A stretch of 64,000 bases of DNA from an uncultured Prevotellaceae bacterium (GTDB lineage Bacteria; Bacteroidota; Bacteroidia; Bacteroidales; Bacteroidaceae): contig CACWNV010000020.1 of assembly GCA_902762325.1 (NCBI GenBank), positions 23,523 to 87,522 of the forward strand, given 5' to 3'. Position 1 is the stretch's first letter, and every line of letters begins with the position of its first letter. Of the stretch, positions 4,419-53,765 are shown one piece after another. The position numbers and the translations under genes were made by a program. Below the pieces are notes generated by a model that was not told the DNA's origin, searched no databases, and saw only the letters and a list, made by a program, of their open reading frames with translations.

Positions 4419-4426
4419 TACCTTTG
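4419..4426 (+). promoter_or_regulatory. -7 box TAccTTTG for tRNA-Pro
   Basis: TACCTTTGCA, the same extended motif as upstream of tRNA-Glu, 31 nt before the tRNA 5' end. Confidence 0.5.
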
Positions 4427-4747: not shown

Positions 4748-4803
4748 ATTTCAAAGGTTTCATTTTTGCATTTAGCTAATGTTTATATACAGACTTTTTT
4801 GTT

Positions 4804-5349
4804 TTAAATTGTTATACCATATTTTCCACTTATAACTACAGATTTTTTTTCATAGAACATTGTAACTTTAAATATACCGCAAACTTGAACGCCATACTTA
4901 GTTTTATTAATTGAGGTAACTTGATGAGATCCACTTTTAAGTTTATAATCATTGTCATCCTTCTTGTACGAAGGGTACAAGCATAAATTCTCTGGTTCAT
5001 CGTCTATCGAGATCACAGCTCCAACCCCATAGTTTCCAAGACTTGATGAAAGCAACTTGTCAATATTCTTTGAATGTGTCAATGCCAAGAAAAAACTAAA
5101 ACCATCATCATCAAATACATCTTCTGTCATAGCTGTTACAACCATGTCTTTTTCTCCTATTCCAGCTTCCACATATATACCAATCATTTTCTGGAAATAG
5201 GTCTTCCCATTAATAGTTACTTCAATGAAATCGCTAGTGTCATATAATTTATCATTAATTTCATCATCTTCACTACCACCGCAAGCAGTTAAACTCAAAG
5301 CTGTTACCATCATGGCTAGCATCAAAATCTTAGAATACAGTTTCTTCAT
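4804..5349 (-). CDS. Hypothetical lipoprotein (orphan, AT-rich islet)
   Basis: 181 aa; signal peptide plus lipobox LSLTAC-GG; no family recognised; visibly AT-rich codon usage compared with neighbours. Confidence 0.6.
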   Translation of the reverse strand: MKKLYSKILMLAMMVTALSLTACGGSEDDEINDKLYDTSDFIEVTINGKTYFQKMIGIYVEAGIGEKDMVVTAMTEDVFDDDGFSFFLALTHSKNIDKLLSSSLGNYGVGAVISIDDEPENLCLYPSYKKDDNDYKLKSGSHQVTSINKTKYGVQVCGIFKVTMFYEKKSVVISGKYGITI

Positions 5350-5634
5350 AATTGTAATGTTGATTAGATTAATTAAATAATTCTATATATTCTCAATAAT
5401 GGATGTCTCATAATTTCTCTTTATGTGGTATCTATTGGGGACTACAAAACTACAAAAATATTTCTACATACGATTTTAAAATGCAAATTTTCTACATACA
5501 ATTTCTTCCATTTTGCATATTAAAGAAAAGCTGTGGAATATAATAGTTAAAAAAAGAGTATTTATATCAATGGATTACTCTAATAGCAGAGTAAATATCT
5601 TGAATTGTTAAATCTTCATTCCTTACTACAAGTT

Positions 5635-5679
5635 TTCGTAGTAGATATTTCCACAATACGAAAATTCGTAGTATATTTG
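5635..5679 (+). promoter_or_regulatory. Promoter with duplicated operator-like motif upstream of the small-ORF pair
   Basis: TTCGTAGTAgATATT (5635-5650) and TTCGTAGTAtATTTG (5665-5679) are direct repeats. The second lies in the perfect palindrome TACGAAAATTCGTA and overlaps the -7 box TATATTTG (5672-5679). ATG at 5704. Confidence 0.45.
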
Positions 5680-5703
5680 CAGTACCTTAAATTAATATTA
5701 AAC

Positions 5704-5862
5704 ATGAAACAAGAATTAGAATGGGTGCAGTTAACATCAGAAGAAATAGATCTGATTGCAGCGATACGAAATTATAACAAATCGTACCCCGATGGTTACC
5801 CAGAATTACTATGGTATGCACAACAGTTGTTTGACAACATGCTCCGTCAGCCATACAATTAA
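5704..5862 (+). CDS. Hypothetical small protein (52 aa)
   Basis: First ATG after the predicted promoter: MKQELEWVQLTSEEIDLIAAIRNY... No family recognised. Confidence 0.4.
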   Translation: MKQELEWVQLTSEEIDLIAAIRNYNKSYPDGYPELLWYAQQLFDNMLRQPYN

Positions 5863-5897
5863 AACAAAAACAAAGTACAATCATAAAAAAGAACGAT

Positions 5898-6155
5898 ATG
5901 GAAGAAATGGTTTTAGAATGCCCAACATTGGTAACTGATATGAAGAAGAAAGTGAAGGATATTCAGATGGCAATATCCTGGCGTGATTTCGCCAACACTT
6001 ATTTTCAGCGTTCATCCTCATGGTTCTATCACAAGATGGACGGTATAGACGGAAATGGTGGTGTAGGCGGATTCAGCAAAGAAGAAGCCGAGCAGATGCG
6101 TGGTGCTTTGATAGACTTATCTAATCGCATTCGCAGGGCTGCAGAGAATATTTAG
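5898..6155 (+). CDS. Small protein resembling the DUF5053-type proteins of Bacteroidales mobile/phage regions
   Basis: 85 aa; ISWRDFANTYFQRSSSWFYHKMDGIDGNGGVGGFSKEEAEQMRGALIDLSNRIRRAAENI matches my memory of that family (needs an HMM check). Confidence 0.5.
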   Translation: MEEMVLECPTLVTDMKKKVKDIQMAISWRDFANTYFQRSSSWFYHKMDGIDGNGGVGGFSKEEAEQMRGALIDLSNRIRRAAENI

Positions 6156-6276
6156 GTGAGACCTTCTTTTGTGTTATTTTTGTCAATTATTCTTGTGAGA
6201 TGGATTACAGAATAGAGTTTGATGAAAAATGGGATAGATTATCTGTGTATAATAACATCAAACCGTAAGTTGAAAT

Positions 6277-6680
6277 ATTGTCAAGAAATATTCGAATTTT
6301 GAGCCCAAAAAACAGGGGGTATTGCTCACGAAAGAGTCATTCGGTCGAAAAAACGCCATTTTTTGATGTTTTTCGTAATTCACTGATTGACATATAGTTA
6401 CACGGATTTACAACTGTAAACGGGCGGTTTACAAAAAATGAATTTGCCAAAGGTATCGTTTTGGTGCGCGAAAGGTAAGGTTTCGTCGTGTGAAAGGTTA
6501 TGTTTGAGGCGGTGAAACATGGTCTTTGGCGCGGTCAAAGGTAAGGTATGGGGGTGAGAAACCTAAGCTTTCGCAAAATCAGGAATGAAGAATGATGAGC
6601 GAAGAAGTGGTTTTTACAGATTTTAACTTCTCTTTCATCACTTTTCGCCGACAAGTTTTTGTCAATATATTTGGTAAAAT
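6277..6680 (+). repeat. Copy 1 of a ~400-bp interspersed non-coding element
   Basis: Aligns by eye along its whole length with 32021-32425 and 53361-53765 (shared blocks TATTCGAATTTT, GTTACACGG, TTTGCCAAAGGTA, GTTTCGTCGTGTGAAAGGT, ATGTTTGAGGCG, GAATGAAG, TTTTGTCAA). Confidence 0.85.
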
Positions 6681-6719
6681 AAAAAAAGCCGAATGACAAG
6701 ATTCGGCTTTTCCTTTTCA
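6675..6719. terminator. Bidirectional hairpin terminator downstream of the 6763..7749 gene
   Basis: AAGCCGAAT / ATTCGGCTT stem; A-run on the left (a U-run for the minus-strand transcript) and TTTTCCTTTTC on the right. Confidence 0.6.
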
Positions 6720-6762
6720 CCACCCTTGCGGCAGTACGATATTCTCTACATCGTGCGCCTGT

Positions 6763-7749
6763 TCAAACAACGGGGATATTTTGCTTAGCAAACGCTATGA
6801 ACTCGTCAACATACGGACGGATGGTTTCCACGCCTCCCTGCATTGTCGGGATGGCATAGCTCTGTCCTTGCAGGCCTACGCCCTGCCCCATGATGGCACC
6901 AAACTTGCGGAAGGCAACGTATGCAGCACCACCGCCATGCATTCCCTTCAGATTGCTGCCAAAGACGAAAATCTCGTTTGGCTGTAGTTGTGTGATAAAC
7001 TCTGGTGTTGTTCTTTTCTGTTCCATATCTCCTGATATTGTAATTTCCATTTCTTTGTAAGCCACTTGCGCTGCAGAAGAACCTTTGTCGTAACGCATGA
7101 CACTTGGCATTGCTCCCGATGCCTCCTCGTAGACAACCATTCGCTCGTCCATTACCTCCGGCATGTCTAAGTCCATGTCGAAATATTTCTTGAAGTACGG
7201 TATGACAATCTCCTCTTTCAGCTTCTTGTACTTCTGCGAAATGGCCGAAGGAGTCATTCCCATCTGCTCTGCTATCTCCTTCCCCTTGAATCCCTGCAAC
7301 AGCATCATGTTAATGATAAGCCTGTCCTGTCGGCTCAACGGAGCATGGTCACAAATATCCTCCACCATCCGATTGAACTGTAAACGCAAGTCGCTGGTCA
7401 TGTCAAACGACTGCAGATAGTCTTCAAAGGTGATCGTCCCGTATTCCCGGTGGTACCATTTCAGCGCATCGAGCACCACGAAGCGGAACCCGTTGATAAT
7501 CCATGTCTTCAGACTGACCTCCGGCGAATGGTTCTCCAGAGGCTTCCAGTTGTGCTCCATCAGATAGATTGCATATTGGTGTGCCAGTGACATGAAATCC
7601 AAGTTCTCCTTTTCACTCAACTGATAACGCTGGTCGAAGACGTAATAGCCCGCCCGGCAATATCCATAGAAGTATTCACGGAAGATGTCGGCATCACCCC
7701 TACGGAAGCCCTCAATGATTCTTTTGTCTGAAAGACGCTGATGGTACAT
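6763..7749 (-). CDS. Fusion protein: sigma-70 region-4-like HTH plus a C-terminal SLOG/LOG-like domain (GSNxxGxHGGGAA...GQSYAIPT) that ends early
   Basis: LSRQDRLIINMMLLQGFKGKEIAEQMGMTPSAISQKYKKLKEE is a sigma70_r4/LuxR-type HTH. NEIFVFGSNLKGMHGGGAAYVAFRKFGAIMGQGVGLQGQSYAIPT matches my memory of the A1S_2505-type phage non-structural (SLOG-like) family. Start set at MYHQRLSD. Confidence 0.6.
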   Translation of the reverse strand: MYHQRLSDKRIIEGFRRGDADIFREYFYGYCRAGYYVFDQRYQLSEKENLDFMSLAHQYAIYLMEHNWKPLENHSPEVSLKTWIINGFRFVVLDALKWYHREYGTITFEDYLQSFDMTSDLRLQFNRMVEDICDHAPLSRQDRLIINMMLLQGFKGKEIAEQMGMTPSAISQKYKKLKEEIVIPYFKKYFDMDLDMPEVMDERMVVYEEASGAMPSVMRYDKGSSAAQVAYKEMEITISGDMEQKRTTPEFITQLQPNEIFVFGSNLKGMHGGGAAYVAFRKFGAIMGQGVGLQGQSYAIPTMQGGVETIRPYVDEFIAFAKQNIPVV

Positions 7750-7872
7750 AGTCAATGAATTTGCCGCTAAATTACAAAAAAATTGCATACGAGCTTAATT
7801 TTTCTTCAAAATCATCTTCTAAGAGATAAAGAAAGTTTTTCAAATAGTATTCAACTTTTAAATAATTAGATT

Positions 7873-8520
7873 ATGAAGAAACAGAATGAATCCAAGACAA
7901 AGCGTGTGTTCAACCTGATTATCGTCGATGAAAGCGGCTCGATGTCTATCATCCGCAAGCAGGCTTTCACAGGTATGAACGAGACCCTACAGACCGTCCG
8001 TCTGATGCAGAAGAAGTTTACCGACCAGGAACAATACGTTACCCTCGTCACCTTTGACTCCGAGCACACCAAATGGCACTATGACAACACACCGGCAGCC
8101 CGCACTCATAACCTGGAATGGAAAGACTATAACCCGTGTGGCGGCACCCCTCTCTACGATGCAATGGGCAAAGCGATCTCGAAAATGAATGCGCTGATCA
8201 GCGATAACGATAATGTACTGGTTACCGTCATCACCGATGGCGAAGAAAACTGTAGTGAAGAATGGACGCTGAAGATGATCCGTAGGATGATTGAAAAGCT
8301 GAAGAAGCATCACTGGACCTTTACGCTTATCGGCACCGACAACCTCGATGTAGAGACGATGGCACATTCATTTGCCATCGAAGAACACATGGAGTTTCAT
8401 CAGGACGTGGAAGGAACAAAAGCGATGTTTGCCCGCGAGCGACGTTGCCGCGAACGCTACAACTGCTGTGTTGCCGAAGAGACGAGCATGCCTGTGGGCA
8501 AGTTCTTTGAAGAGAAATAG
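7873..8520 (+). CDS. Cytoplasmic von Willebrand factor A (vWA) domain protein with intact MIDAS
   Basis: 215 aa; no signal peptide; IIVDESGSM (DxSxS), GGTPLYDA, VITDGEEN. Confidence 0.75.
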   Translation: MKKQNESKTKRVFNLIIVDESGSMSIIRKQAFTGMNETLQTVRLMQKKFTDQEQYVTLVTFDSEHTKWHYDNTPAARTHNLEWKDYNPCGGTPLYDAMGKAISKMNALISDNDNVLVTVITDGEENCSEEWTLKMIRRMIEKLKKHHWTFTLIGTDNLDVETMAHSFAIEEHMEFHQDVEGTKAMFARERRCRERYNCCVAEETSMPVGKFFEEK

Positions 8521-8539
8521 CAGGACAAGTGGAGGCTTG

Positions 8540-8989
8540 TCACTCGCTCATTTCATCGTAGCTCTTGTCAAGTTCTATAGCCGTTATCTGACCGTCAATC
8601 ACTCTTAACTTCGTGATGCCACTGATTCCCATATCGAGATAGCTCACTTCATACCAGTGATCCTTTAACGGTTTGATTTCTGAAATCTCACTCTTTGGCA
8701 TAGGGCCGTCCTGTGCCGAAGTCCTGAAGAGCCAAACGGCATAGCAGTCATTGCTTTCACAGTCATATTCATAGGAGTCTTTCAGGAACTTCACCATCTC
8801 AGATGAGAAATGAGTATGAACATAGGCACTGTCGAGCAGCTGGTCTCCAAAGACATACTGCACATAGAGAGATCTCAGCAAATCCACATCGGATGTGTTT
8901 TGGGTTTGTCCTCCACATGAAACAAACACAGATGCACTCGTCAGAACGATCGACAGCAATAATGACATTATTGATTTTTTCATTATCAT
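8540..8989 (-). CDS. Hypothetical lipoprotein
   Basis: Signal peptide plus lipobox FVSC-GG; 149 aa; family not recognised. Confidence 0.6.
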   Translation of the reverse strand: MIMKKSIMSLLLSIVLTSASVFVSCGGQTQNTSDVDLLRSLYVQYVFGDQLLDSAYVHTHFSSEMVKFLKDSYEYDCESNDCYAVWLFRTSAQDGPMPKSEISEIKPLKDHWYEVSYLDMGISGITKLRVIDGQITAIELDKSYDEMSE

Positions 8990-31006: not shown

Positions 31007-31822
31007 TTATAGTTCGTAGACTTTATTTTTTACATATTCTGCCCATTCAGATGCAGTTTTCGATTTGTCAAAAGTTTGCCATGGGATTGGCTTTCCGATG
31101 CTGACATTGAATGTCTTTCCTACATTCTTATACATCTCGTCAACAAGAAACAGCATTGCAATGTTGACTTTCTTGATGTGACTGTCACAGAAGTTAGCCA
31201 GCCGATAGAACTTCTCGGAATTCTGACCGCTGAAATGAATCGGGACAACATCACGATGTGTCTCCACACTCTTCGAGATGAACGTCTTCTTCCAGGGTAA
31301 GTCACGGATGACGCCATCCTTCTTGCGAGAGCAGAGACCGGCAGGAAACATCAGCATGTGATGGTCGCTCTTGAAACCAGCCTCAACCATTGCAGGGAAG
31401 TCGCGGCTCTGTTTTCCCGTCTTGTTGATAGGTATACAGAGGGGGGCTAATCCCGGGAGATTCATCAGCAGGTCGTTCACAAGATAGCGGAAGTTGCTGT
31501 CATAGTGCCGGCCGATGATTGCACCAAGCGCCACACCGTCAGCACCGCCAAGCGGATGGTTGGAAACAAACGTATAGAGTTTTCCGTCGTTTTTATCGGG
31601 TAAGTTCTCTTTTCCTTCCACTTTCAGGGTCATCTCCAGATACTTAACGCATGCCTCAAGCCACGGTGTACCAGTGAGTTCACGACTCTCCCAAAGGAAA
31701 GCATTCACCTGGTCTTGATGGATGACGCGCTTGAGCCAGTTCACCAAGGGACTGGGCACCCACTTTGCCTTATCACCCATCTTATTCTTGAGAATAACGT
31801 CTAAATCTATCGTTTTTTCCAT
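31007..31822 (-). CDS. glsA: Lysophospholipid (PlsC-type) O-acyltransferase, GlsA-like
   Basis: 271 aa; VSNHPLGGADG (HX4D-like block) and FPAG...R block of the LPLAT family. Confidence 0.6.
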   Translation of the reverse strand: MEKTIDLDVILKNKMGDKAKWVPSPLVNWLKRVIHQDQVNAFLWESRELTGTPWLEACVKYLEMTLKVEGKENLPDKNDGKLYTFVSNHPLGGADGVALGAIIGRHYDSNFRYLVNDLLMNLPGLAPLCIPINKTGKQSRDFPAMVEAGFKSDHHMLMFPAGLCSRKKDGVIRDLPWKKTFISKSVETHRDVVPIHFSGQNSEKFYRLANFCDSHIKKVNIAMLFLVDEMYKNVGKTFNVSIGKPIPWQTFDKSKTASEWAEYVKNKVYEL

Positions 31823-32020: not shown

Positions 32021-32425
32021 ATTGTCAAGATTTATTCGAATTTTAGCCCCAAATTAAGGCCATCTGAACGAACGAAAAGTTTCTCGGTTGAAAATAACGC
32101 GATTTTTGAGGCTTTTTGTAAAGCGTTGATTGGCAGACGGTTACACGGATGTTAATCTGTAATCGGTTGGTTTGCATAAAATGGATTTGCCAAAGGTATC
32201 GTTTCGCTGCGCCAAAGACCATGTTTCGTCGTGTGAAAGGTCATGTTTGAGGCGGTGAAACATGGTCTTTGGTGCGCTCAAAGCTTAGGTTTGGCGGTGC
32301 GAAAGCTGAGCTTTCCCAAAATTAGGAATGAAGTATGAAGAGTGAAGAATCATGTTTTACACAATTTAACATCTCTTTCACCACTTTTTCCCAACAAGTT
32401 TTTGTCAAGATTATTGACGGTAATT
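32021..32425 (+). repeat. Copy 2 of the ~400-bp interspersed non-coding element (upstream of mraZ)
   Basis: Same block order and orientation as 6277-6680 and 53361-53765; contains a perfect 16-bp hairpin stem, 32212-32227 / 32257-32272. Confidence 0.85.
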
Positions 32426-32677
32426 CGTCACTTAATTGGTAAATTGTTGTACCCCAATATCGGGATATCGCCTCTTTCTGAGAGCAAATGTTTACATGCT
32501 CGAAAGAACAAATAACGAAGTATTTTGATAAAACCGATGATAAAACAAATGCTTTCTCAAGAACTACAGGAATAAACCTGAATAGTCCGTTTATTCATAA
32601 TTCTTTACAGTCTGTATGTAACCCATAAGATGACAGATTAATTTTTATCAATTTTTTCCTCTTTTTTTAGAATTTTT

Positions 32678-32707
32678 GTGGGGAATTGTGGGGGATTGTG
32701 GAATAAA
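32678..32707 (+). promoter_or_regulatory. MraZ operator: three GTGGG-type repeats at 10-bp phasing
   Basis: GTGGGGAATT GTGGGGGATT GTGGAATAAA; matches the known MraZ box architecture (direct GTGG[GT] repeats, 10-bp spacing) upstream of mraZ. Confidence 0.7.
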
Positions 32708-32712
32708 ATATG

Positions 32713-32720
32713 TATCTTTG
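32713..32720 (+). promoter_or_regulatory. dcw cluster promoter -7 box TAtcTTTG
   Basis: Exact TAnnTTTG match, 5 nt after the third MraZ box and 30 nt before the mraZ ATG. Confidence 0.5.
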
Positions 32721-32750
32721 GCAACGAATTTCCAAAAAGGAAACTAGTCG

Positions 32751-33242
32751 ATGAGATTCTTAGGTAACATAGAGGCTAAGATTGACGCAAAAGGAAGGGT
32801 TTTTCTTCCATCCGTCTTCCGCAAGGTGCTTCAGGCATCGGGCGAGGAGAACATGGTGCTTCGCAAAGATGTTTTCCAGTCGTGCCTGGTGTTATATCCA
32901 GAATCCGTGTGGAATGAACAGATGGATGCGCTCCGACAACGACTAAGTCGTTGGAATGCCGCCCATCAGCAGATATTCCGGCAGTTTGTCCATGACTTGG
33001 AGATTCTTACTCTCGACGGCAACGGCCGTTTCCTCATTCCAAAGCGTTATCTCAAAAAGGCTGAAATAGAACAGACGGTCAGATTCATCGGAATGGGCGA
33101 CACCATCGAAATATGGAATGCAGAGAATGGCAGCAAGCCATTCATGGATGCCGAAGAATTCAGTCAGGCACTGGAATCGATTATGGGCACCACTGCTTCA
33201 GATTCGAATGGAACGGAAACGGACGGCGCTGGCCGACTATGA
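32751..33242 (+). CDS. mraZ: Transcriptional regulator MraZ
   Basis: 163 aa; duplicated SpoVT/AbrB-like units with KGRVFLPSVFRK and NGRFLIPKRY. Confidence 0.92.
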   Translation: MRFLGNIEAKIDAKGRVFLPSVFRKVLQASGEENMVLRKDVFQSCLVLYPESVWNEQMDALRQRLSRWNAAHQQIFRQFVHDLEILTLDGNGRFLIPKRYLKKAEIEQTVRFIGMGDTIEIWNAENGSKPFMDAEEFSQALESIMGTTASDSNGTETDGAGRL

Positions 33243-52841: not shown

Positions 52842-52878
52842 AATGCCGTGGGAATTAGACGTTAGATTTATGTTGTAC

Positions 52879-53300
52879 CGCAACGGAAGAAATAACGTAG
52901 GCATTATATTTGGGGTTGTGCCGTAACGGAAGAAATGCCAGAGGCATTAGACAATGGTAGCCAGCCATACAGAAACGCCCTTGGGTGTTTCGAAATGGCT
53001 GGTATTGGATTGCCCCCAATAATATAAGCCTGCCCTTGGGTAGGCGACATGAGCGGCTCTTGTCCCTTACCTAGCGGCAAGGTTCCGGATGTGTGGTCCA
53101 TCTTTACCAGCCATTTCGCCGTACCCATAGGCACGGCTGTATGGCTGGCTACCTTTGTCTGATGCCTATCGGCATCCTTTCCTTACTAACTGCCCCTTGT
53201 CTGATGCCTCTGGCATCCTCTTTGCAAACGGCCTAACTGCATCCTCTCCTTGCTAACCGCCCCCTGTATGCTGCCAACGGCATCTTCTTTACTGACTATC
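52879..53300. repeat. Nested inverted-repeat complex built from hairpin-containing units (~33-45 nt; conserved 20-nt core)
   Basis: Left arm 52935-53004 vs reverse complement of 53105-53176: GGTAGCCAGCCATACAG 17/17, CGAAATGGCTGGTA 14/14. The unit core TTGTCTRATGCC-N3/4-GGCAT is present 2x on the left (as its complement) and 3x on the right. Confidence 0.8.
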
Positions 53301-53360: not shown

Positions 53361-53765
53361 ATTTGTAAAGGAATATTCGAATTTTGACCCAAAAAAACAG
53401 GGGGTGCTGATCACGAAAGGGTCATTCGGTCGAAAAAACGTCGTTTTTTGACGTTTTTGGTAATTCGTTGACTGACAGACGGTTACACGGTTATTTATCT
53501 GTAATCTAACGGTTTACAAAATACATATTTGCCAAAGGTAAGGTTTCGCTGCGCGAAAGGTTATGTTTCGTCGTGTGAAAGGTGATGTTTGAGGCGATGA
53601 AACATAACCTTTGGTGCGGTCAAAGCTAAGCTTTCGCGATGCGAGAGCTATGCTCTCGCAAAATGAAGAATGAAGAGTGAAGAGTGAAGAATCGATTTTT
53701 ACAAAAATTAACCTCTATTTCATCACTTTTCCCCGACAAACTTTTGTCAACATAATTGACAACGA
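53361..53765 (+). repeat. Copy 3 of the ~400-bp interspersed non-coding element
   Basis: Same block order and orientation as copies 1 and 2; 14-bp hairpin stem 53556-53569 / 53599-53612. Confidence 0.85.

Follow-up and report, generated by a model that had tools for sequence, protein, structure and literature searches.

The window, by which we mean the whole 64-kb stretch of DNA analysed here, carries three + strand copies of one element that match end to end in alignment: copy A at 6277-6680, copy B at 32021-32425 and copy C at 53361-53765. Similarity between them falls abruptly at these edges, a separate repeat search of the 64-kb window returned the identical trio, and three diagnostic motifs occur three times each in the window against 0.01-0.05 occurrences expected by chance. 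Alignment, repeat search and motif counts thus confirm what a first, sequence-only reading of this DNA had proposed, namely three full-length copies on the same strand; all three are also recovered by nhmmer (E=1e-150 for copy A).

Copy B occupies a 928-bp gap between an acyltransferase gene (31007-31822, - strand) and mraZ (32751-33242, + strand). GTGGGG-type boxes (TTGTGGGGAATTGTGGGGGATTGTGG) that look like MraZ operator repeats lie upstream of mraZ at 32676-32727 and are kept in a locus (L114, 2926-2977) where MraZ is only 76% identical. Copy A lies between an 85-aa ORF (5898-6155, +) and a 341-aa ORF (6763-7788, -), and its surroundings (4800-8600) look like an accessory island, with the 341-aa ORF being sigma-70-like and accompanied by small ORFs and a vWA-like 215-aa ORF. 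Copy C has the gyrB terminator on one side and the terminator of a convergent 460-aa gene on the other. Both gap lengths first reported are right, the one upstream of mraZ measuring 928 bp and the one after gyrB 1052 bp. Just after the gyrB terminator, at 52872-52949, two 35-nt direct repeats (GTTGTACCGCAACGGAAGAAAT..GGCATTA) stand 43 bp apart.

The MraZ and GyrB proteins of the window are identical to those of an uncultured Prevotella sp. MAG (MBQ2196710.1 and MBQ2196726.1); the next nearest MraZ proteins share ~76-82% identity, and those with a named source are labelled Prevotella sp. Copies A and C have orthologues at 93% identity in the metagenomic loci L063 and L018, respectively, and at the locus of copy B the element was found in six other assemblies. 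The flanks of copy A are only 72-85% identical to those of the orthologous L063 locus.

An invariant 18-mer of the element, run against a metagenome collection, yielded 97 stretches, and an nhmmer profile built from the three window copies gave 92 matches above 150 bits, of which 74 were full length and 68 were left after copies at >=97% identity had been dropped. About 80 further copies from metagenomes beyond the window were collected in this way. The 68 non-redundant copies share common boundaries at a mean pairwise identity of 78%, and their core measures 388-390 nt without exception (68/68), with indels in 26 of 26,452 alignment cells. The sample was ascertained by one exact 18-mer and is to that extent biased; L120, a copy found without the 18-mer, still carries TTTCGTCGTGTGAAAG, so that the core is truly conserved and not merely selected by the search.

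Scanning a genome collection with the same 18-mer gave eight chance matches in unrelated phyla, the sole Bacteroidales match lying inside a coding region; the representative genome of the source species in that collection is apparently masked or lacks the exact 18-mer. Phage, plasmid and viral-contig collections contained no match by two motifs or by BLASTN. In the literature, we found no described Prevotella interspersed repeat. The sRNA atlas of S. copri, which differs from the uncultured Prevotella host, mentions no repeat family; its supplements lack the motifs of the element, and its sRNA probe oligos have no match in the window or the loci (bioRxiv 10.1101/2024.04.05.588293). The repeat family is real and apparently undescribed, and the best-supported reading of its distribution is that it is lineage-specific, residing in uncultured Prevotella.

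Modular architecture and direct ends

The element is about 405-410 bp long and its parts follow a fixed order. The left end, TTTGTCAA-N14-TTGAC, includes TATTCGAATTTT and leads into a leader of ~170 bp, after which comes the array of six degenerate 22-bp units. The array gives way to an exchangeable module rich in purines, then to a tail of ~50 bp that is highly conserved, and finally to a right end, TTTGTCAA-N5-TTGAC, which repeats the left end in direct orientation. Every block listed by the sequence-only reading is present in the window copies, with copy-specific exceptions visible in the alignment and its coordinates. Specifically, the left edge carries TTGTCAAGA/TATTCGAATTTT, the A/T-run hairpin, degenerate in copy B, has the form TCGGTCGAAAAAACGTCGTTTTTTGA in copy C, the blocks GTTACACGG and TTTGCCAAAGGTA follow, the heptamer tract is GAATGAAG, and copies B and C carry the right-edge TTTTGTCAA-N5-TTGAC without mismatch, copy A terminating in TTTGG.

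On the + strand of copy B, the left terminal motif TTGTCAAGATTTATTCGAATTTT spans 32022-32044, as placed by column conservation and a boundary listing of 66 copies; it holds an imperfect palindrome, GTCAA...TTCGAA...TTGAC, and family conservation starts there. The A/T-run hairpin region (32084-32109), whose family consensus in the 68-copy alignment is TCGGTCGAAAAAACG.CGTTTTTTGA, corresponds to a helix (helix 2) without covariation, in which only 70% of cells pair. Next comes a block conserved in primary sequence, GTTGACTGACA / GGTTACACGG / CTGTAA / GGTTTACAAA (32122-32177; columns >=90% in the 68 copies).

The array of six degenerate 22-bp units (32192-32323, consensus AAAGGTAATGTTTCGCGGTGTG) was delimited by lag self-identity and unit register, its self-identity reaching 0.58 at lag 22 and 0.52 at lag 44 over a background of 0.25 +/- 0.08, which bears out the ~22-bp repeat array described from the three copies. 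AAA and TTT tracts within it are phased ~11 bp apart, several units read CGAAAG-N6-TTTCG, and the unit number is six in 68/68 copies. Tandem Repeats Finder did not report this internal array. Units 5-6 and the purine heptamer tract together form an exchangeable patch (32275-32357), defined by comparing seven strains at one locus, for which there are alternative modules, A (the GAATGAAG heptamers) and B (GGAATTAGGAAGGAGGAAGTGATTC). The conserved tail, TTTTACA..TTTAAC.TCTCTTTCA.CACTTTTCCCCGACAAG (32352-32398), lies outside the search pattern and is the top-conserved bin of the 68-copy alignment, with a mean major-allele frequency of 0.97. The right terminal motif TTTTTGTCAAGATTATTGAC (32399-32418; boundary listing and column conservation) repeats the left end directly but in shortened form, and one subfamily carries an alternative right end, TTTTTGTCGGGATTTTTCAT, consisting of a GC-rich hairpin followed by a T run.

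Conservation across the family begins at (A/T)TTGTCAA and stops at TTTTTGTCAA-N5-TTGAC, the same places at which the edges had been drawn from the window alone (column conservation and boundary listing). The direct repetition of the left edge at the right edge and the non-inverted termini noted there hold as well, with TTTGTCAA in direct orientation at both ends and an inverted part of merely 5 bp, GTCAA/TTGAC. In the 66 copies with listed boundaries, left flanks are heterogeneous ahead of (A/T)TTGTCAA, the bases after TTTGTCAA vary independently at the left and right ends, and the flanks show no copy-specific target-site duplication. Direct rather than inverted ends, together with the lack of a target duplication, would point to a mobilising enzyme other than a DDE transposase. 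A search of the window for solo att-like sites, TTGTCAA-N3-16-TTGAC, matched only the right ends of the elements themselves.

Genomic placement and mosaic variation

As first described for the window, the genomic contexts are unrelated: copies occupy unrelated intergenic sites in either orientation. The left end of the element faces 26 5' ends and 16 3' ends of neighbouring genes and the right end 15 and 18, respectively, and 82 neighbouring proteins represent 74 Pfam families, none of which is enriched. We saw no transposase within the copies or next to them, the neighbours are not enriched in any transposase family, and neither the window nor ~0.7 Mb of related loci contains an autonomous partner or a transposase with matching ends. 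Partial or solo module matches were considered as a possible autonomous relative and rejected, the adjoining ORFs being ordinary (ndk, an enolase-superfamily protein and a lipoprotein-like ORF).

A Prevotella with a 76% identical MraZ has the same flanking genes and a 272-bp gap upstream of mraZ from which the element is absent; this is the only element-free mraZ site seen, and it belongs to a distant species whose divergence makes the junctions illegible. The samples revealed no presence/absence polymorphism, all three window copies being conserved in others, so that recent mobility of the element is unsupported. Decay products occur as well: the truncated L040 copy (2002-2268) breaks off after ~270 nt, the one in L119 (701-1002) has lost units 1-4 through an internal deletion of ~100 bp, and L058 and L068 hold solo right ends. 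One locus, L039, holds two copies in opposite orientation 10 kb apart.

Many copies abut, cluster or nest with other repeats, namely a palindromic MITE-like family and hairpin repeats. The window contains a ~260-bp palindromic MITE-like element at 52923-53186, with 82-nt inverted arms that are 76% complementary, and members of this family lie, in both orientations, directly beside many copies of the 400-bp element in metagenome contigs. Short hairpin repeats, GATGCC-N4-GGCATC, are found at 53150-53290, each preceded by CTACCTTTGTCT with a TAnnTTTG promoter-like box; in L107 (1938-2186), 4-5 copies of the same hairpin unit are arranged as a 63-bp tandem array.

The most unusual result concerns variation within the family, which consists almost entirely of alleles shared between copies. 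Biallelic columns, with the minor allele in >=8 of 61 copies, make up 134 of 389, and there are only 91 singleton variants versus thousands of shared minor-allele cells. Linkage falls from r2 = 0.19 below 20 bp to 0.03-0.05 past 40 bp, all four allele combinations are present in more than 90% of column pairs, and 8 of the 12 possible module combinations were seen (three first-hairpin forms, two purine-tract forms and two right ends). The ratio of transitions to transversions, 66/80, argues against recurrent mutation. At the mraZ locus of seven near-identical strains (L001-L006 and the window), the 83-bp patch at 32275-32357 varies at 35 of its 83 sites (42%); the flanks vary by 1.5-5% and the remainder of the element by 2.4%. 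One of these strains, L005, has the alternative module B in this patch. Repeated short-tract exchange between copies, with reshuffling over 20-40 bp, would give variation of this kind.

Part of the mosaic could come from short-read assemblies switching between copies. Independent assemblies of one locus give the same mosaic at 98-99.8% identity, however, which indicates that it is probably mostly real. In L051 (reverse complement), identity to the mraZ locus is 97.6% as far as TTTTTGTC (position 2017, equivalent to window 32406), beyond which the right end and flank are different ones; this switch of partner stems either from ectopic recombination at the repeat or from chimeric assembly.

Private mutations are about as frequent in conserved columns (0.26 per column) as in variable ones (0.24), so that there is no sign of ongoing purifying selection on single copies. 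The pattern fits neutral decay after insertion, and the scarcity of private decay, not constraint, accounts for the constant length.

Functional and coding alternatives

Each copy might be a non-coding RNA gene or a cis-acting part, either as a + strand transcript of ~400 nt ending at the right-end hairpin or as a minus-strand transcript of ~100-170 nt starting from the TACCTTTG box in unit 1; in both versions, the exchangeable purine-rich module would be a variable interaction surface. We consider this unlikely. Both strands do outfold their dinucleotide shuffles (z = -4.5 for + and -3.7 for -) and the + strand folds better in 66/68 copies, but the strand asymmetry also appears in the shuffles and therefore stems from base composition. 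The end of one subfamily, an 8-bp GC-rich stem followed by ATTTTT, resembles intrinsic terminators, and the conserved TCACTTTTC has a complement in GAAG(A)GTGA, which both forms of the module contain (judged by eye in the alignment). Against these points, RNAalifold finds a weak consensus of -20 kcal/mol over 424 columns, in which 3 of 52 pairs are compensated, and the covariation test on the family, which the sequence-only reading had implied would be worth building a covariance model for, yields nothing beyond shuffled controls.

In that test, 98 pairs were taken from the best single-sequence folds and partners were permuted among sequences for the control. Paired cells amount to 79.7% compared with 79.5% after shuffling (107 of 500 shuffles attain the observed value), the covariation score is 0.095 versus 0.094, and 19 pairs show double changes where 20.0 are expected. 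Even the arms of the most convincing hairpins vary independently, as at columns 278/294, where 21 copies have CG, 17 have GC and 30 are unpaired. Complementary variants of units 2 and 4 are not enriched (13 observed versus ~17 expected), and the ratio of G.U to A.C, 1.84, stays inside the range of slid controls (1.0-1.84). A custom helix search was too noisy owing to the A/T runs. A novel structured RNA is accordingly not supported, given that the evidence for it from RNAalifold, pair counts, strand folding and G.U/A.C ratios is no greater than base composition provides; we conclude that the hairpins are a by-product of repeated, partly palindromic units rather than selected structures.

That the sequence-only reading could not match the element to a described RNA family agrees with Rfam, which at gathering score identifies only three tRNAs in the window and, in a permissive scan of copies B and C with their flanks, returns chance-level eukaryotic miRNA and snoRNA models and unrelated bacterial sRNA models, all far below gathering. 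As for the minus-strand transcript, the TACCTTTG box does occur in all three window copies, and it is indeed shared with tRNA promoters, at window positions 4419 and 49541, upstream of two tRNA genes. The distance from box to gene is 30-40 nt for both tRNA-Pro (4458) and tRNA-Glu (49570). The box does not stand as a family feature, since only 23 of the 68 non-redundant copies have it at that position, the other 45 lacking it and TACCTCTC or TAAGCTCTC being the commonest variants; it is a property of the subfamily that holds the window copies. That private mutations are not depleted in the conserved blocks also speaks against an RNA function.

Somewhat less probable still is that the element serves the host, from the outset or by later adoption, as a DNA-level platform, whose phased 22-bp units and conserved blocks would be bound by a DNA-binding or nucleoid-associated protein, conservation reflecting recognition by that protein. 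Enterobacterial BIMEs/REPs bind IHF and gyrase and have a comparable modular, mosaic organisation. A platform of this type would suit the strict 22-bp periodicity in all copies, a conservation that resides in primary sequence and not in pairing, a length held constant at 388-390 nt in 68 copies, and the keeping of copies at orthologous loci across strains; blocks conserved at >=95%, together with the constant length, could reflect a host function rather than the needs of mobility. Yet no binding protein is known or encoded nearby, the conserved columns are not depleted of private mutations, and little private decay also accounts for the constant length. Moreover, truncated and internally deleted copies are tolerated, including the loss of units 1-4, and a related Prevotella does without the element at the same locus.

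A further reading, which we hold to be improbable, makes the element functional, as a ~400-nt RNA or as a DNA scaffold to which protein binds; within an otherwise conserved frame, copies would swap the cassette at 32275-32357 (units 5-6 and the purine tract) inside a species, and a recombinase acting on the direct TTTGTCAA...TTGAC ends would mobilise the element. Were it true, the cassette would represent dispersed, recombination-driven variation of a non-coding specificity module.

That the copies are fragments of a decayed protein-coding gene, or of a minus-strand small-protein gene family, is very improbable, and a protein-coding remnant was rejected on account of stops, inconsistent frames and the lack of codon-phase variation. 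Every reading frame is interrupted by stops, and which frame stays open differs from copy to copy. The longest ORF has a median of 47-61 codons on the minus strand and 31-40 on the plus strand, and in the three window copies no minus-strand frame is free of stops. The three codon phases show a flat profile of variability (0.54, 0.55 and 0.52), with no 3-base periodicity. Some support for a gene comes from the few copies that are open on the minus strand over 112-136 codons, but these use two different minus frames; the ORFs of copies A and C share a frame, but copy B has a stop there. The sequence-only reading was right that no frame is conserved across the copies, and a consistent frame in a wider alignment, which it had named as the mark of a decayed gene, was sought across the family and not found; its mention of a single ORF needs a small correction, because copies B and C, too, are overlapped by mechanical ORFs of >=50 aa. 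Its observation that the element contains no transposase is borne out, the element encoding nothing. Gene callers have nevertheless made 45 clusters of 'hypothetical proteins' (P0001-P0045 in a public protein collection) from the minus strand of the repeat, one of which is in NCBI; apart from three fused ORFs with a PF13310 domain, none of them has a Pfam domain.

Proposed mobility, analogues and significance

Taken together, we favour, with a probability of roughly one half, a lineage-specific, non-autonomous, MITE-like interspersed mosaic repeat that diversifies by ectopic gene conversion, and we infer both its mobility and any effect on the host. Shared boundaries, non-coding content, dispersed sites, an element-free related locus, decay products, clustering with other repeats and mosaicism speak for a mobile repeat; the absence of an autonomous partner, the mere 5 bp of inverted ends, the missing target duplication and the lack of presence/absence polymorphism speak against it. 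Under this mobile-repeat model, the element would be copied to new intergenic sites, as selfish DNA, by a function supplied in trans, for which a site-specific or single-strand recombinase (of the HUH or tyrosine type) would be likelier than a DDE transposase. Dispersed copies would later swap short patches by ectopic gene conversion, giving rise to the extreme mosaic and to the module swaps between strains, and effects on neighbouring genes, such as those of the terminator-like right end in one subfamily, would be incidental to the landing site.

The closest architectural analogue, judged by its published description, is BrickBuilt (MITEPgRS) of Porphyromonas gingivalis. It is strictly intergenic, has 1 to 23 tandem repeats of 23 nt between its leader and its tail, measures 84 to 991 nt and is bounded by 12-nt terminal inverted repeats of IS5 type (GAGACCTTTGCA...TGCAAAGGTCTC) that match ISPg elements (Klein et al. 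2015, PMC4596501). Both are non-coding, strictly intergenic repeats of a Bacteroidota host, with tens of copies and a limited host range, in which a leader and a tail surround an array of 22-23-nt direct repeats; long stem-loops are predicted in both, Rfam matches are lacking and internal differences distinguish strains. Unlike BrickBuilt, the present element has direct ends, no IS5-type 12-nt inverted repeats and no visible parent IS, and its array is fixed at six degenerate units in a constant length.

BIMEs/REP clusters and the BOX elements of Streptococcus pneumoniae are likewise modular, interspersed intergenic repeats with alternative forms and no coding capacity, often located between convergent genes. 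REP units are ~35-bp palindromes mobilised by RAYT transposases, and BOX elements contain boxB modules in variable number; by contrast, the element described here is a single ~410-bp unit of fixed order with no overall palindromic symmetry. The PATEs, non-autonomous derivatives of IS200/IS605, also have neither terminal inverted repeats nor a target duplication, and their small same-orientation palindromes near both ends recall the GTCAA...TTGAC found here at left and right. The terminal stems of the present element are merely 5-7 bp, however, no TnpA or TnpB was seen, and a conserved target tetranucleotide is inseparable from the element's own (A/T)TTG edge. IS200/IS605 elements show strict strand bias, and such a bias is not evident here, given the opposite orientation of the two L039 copies. 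With classical DDE-derived MITEs, the element shares its small size, its non-coding nature and its many copies dispersed in intergenic DNA; a classical MITE was rejected, since the ends are direct repeats of TTTGTCAA, inverted over only 5 bp, and there is no target duplication.

Direct ends without a target duplication would point to a non-DDE mobilising enzyme, one that would merit identification. Prevotella is dominant in ruminant and human guts and genetically little explored. If the favoured reading, a non-autonomous mosaic repeat, is true, a gut lineage of this genus harbours a previously undescribed repeat family, one that breaks short-read assemblies, seeds spurious ORFs in public protein sets (the 45 clusters) and supplies dispersed homology for rearrangements. 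With one third of its positions biallelic and linkage gone within ~40 bp, the family would offer a natural and clean example of ectopic gene conversion over short tracts, acting between dispersed bacterial repeats.
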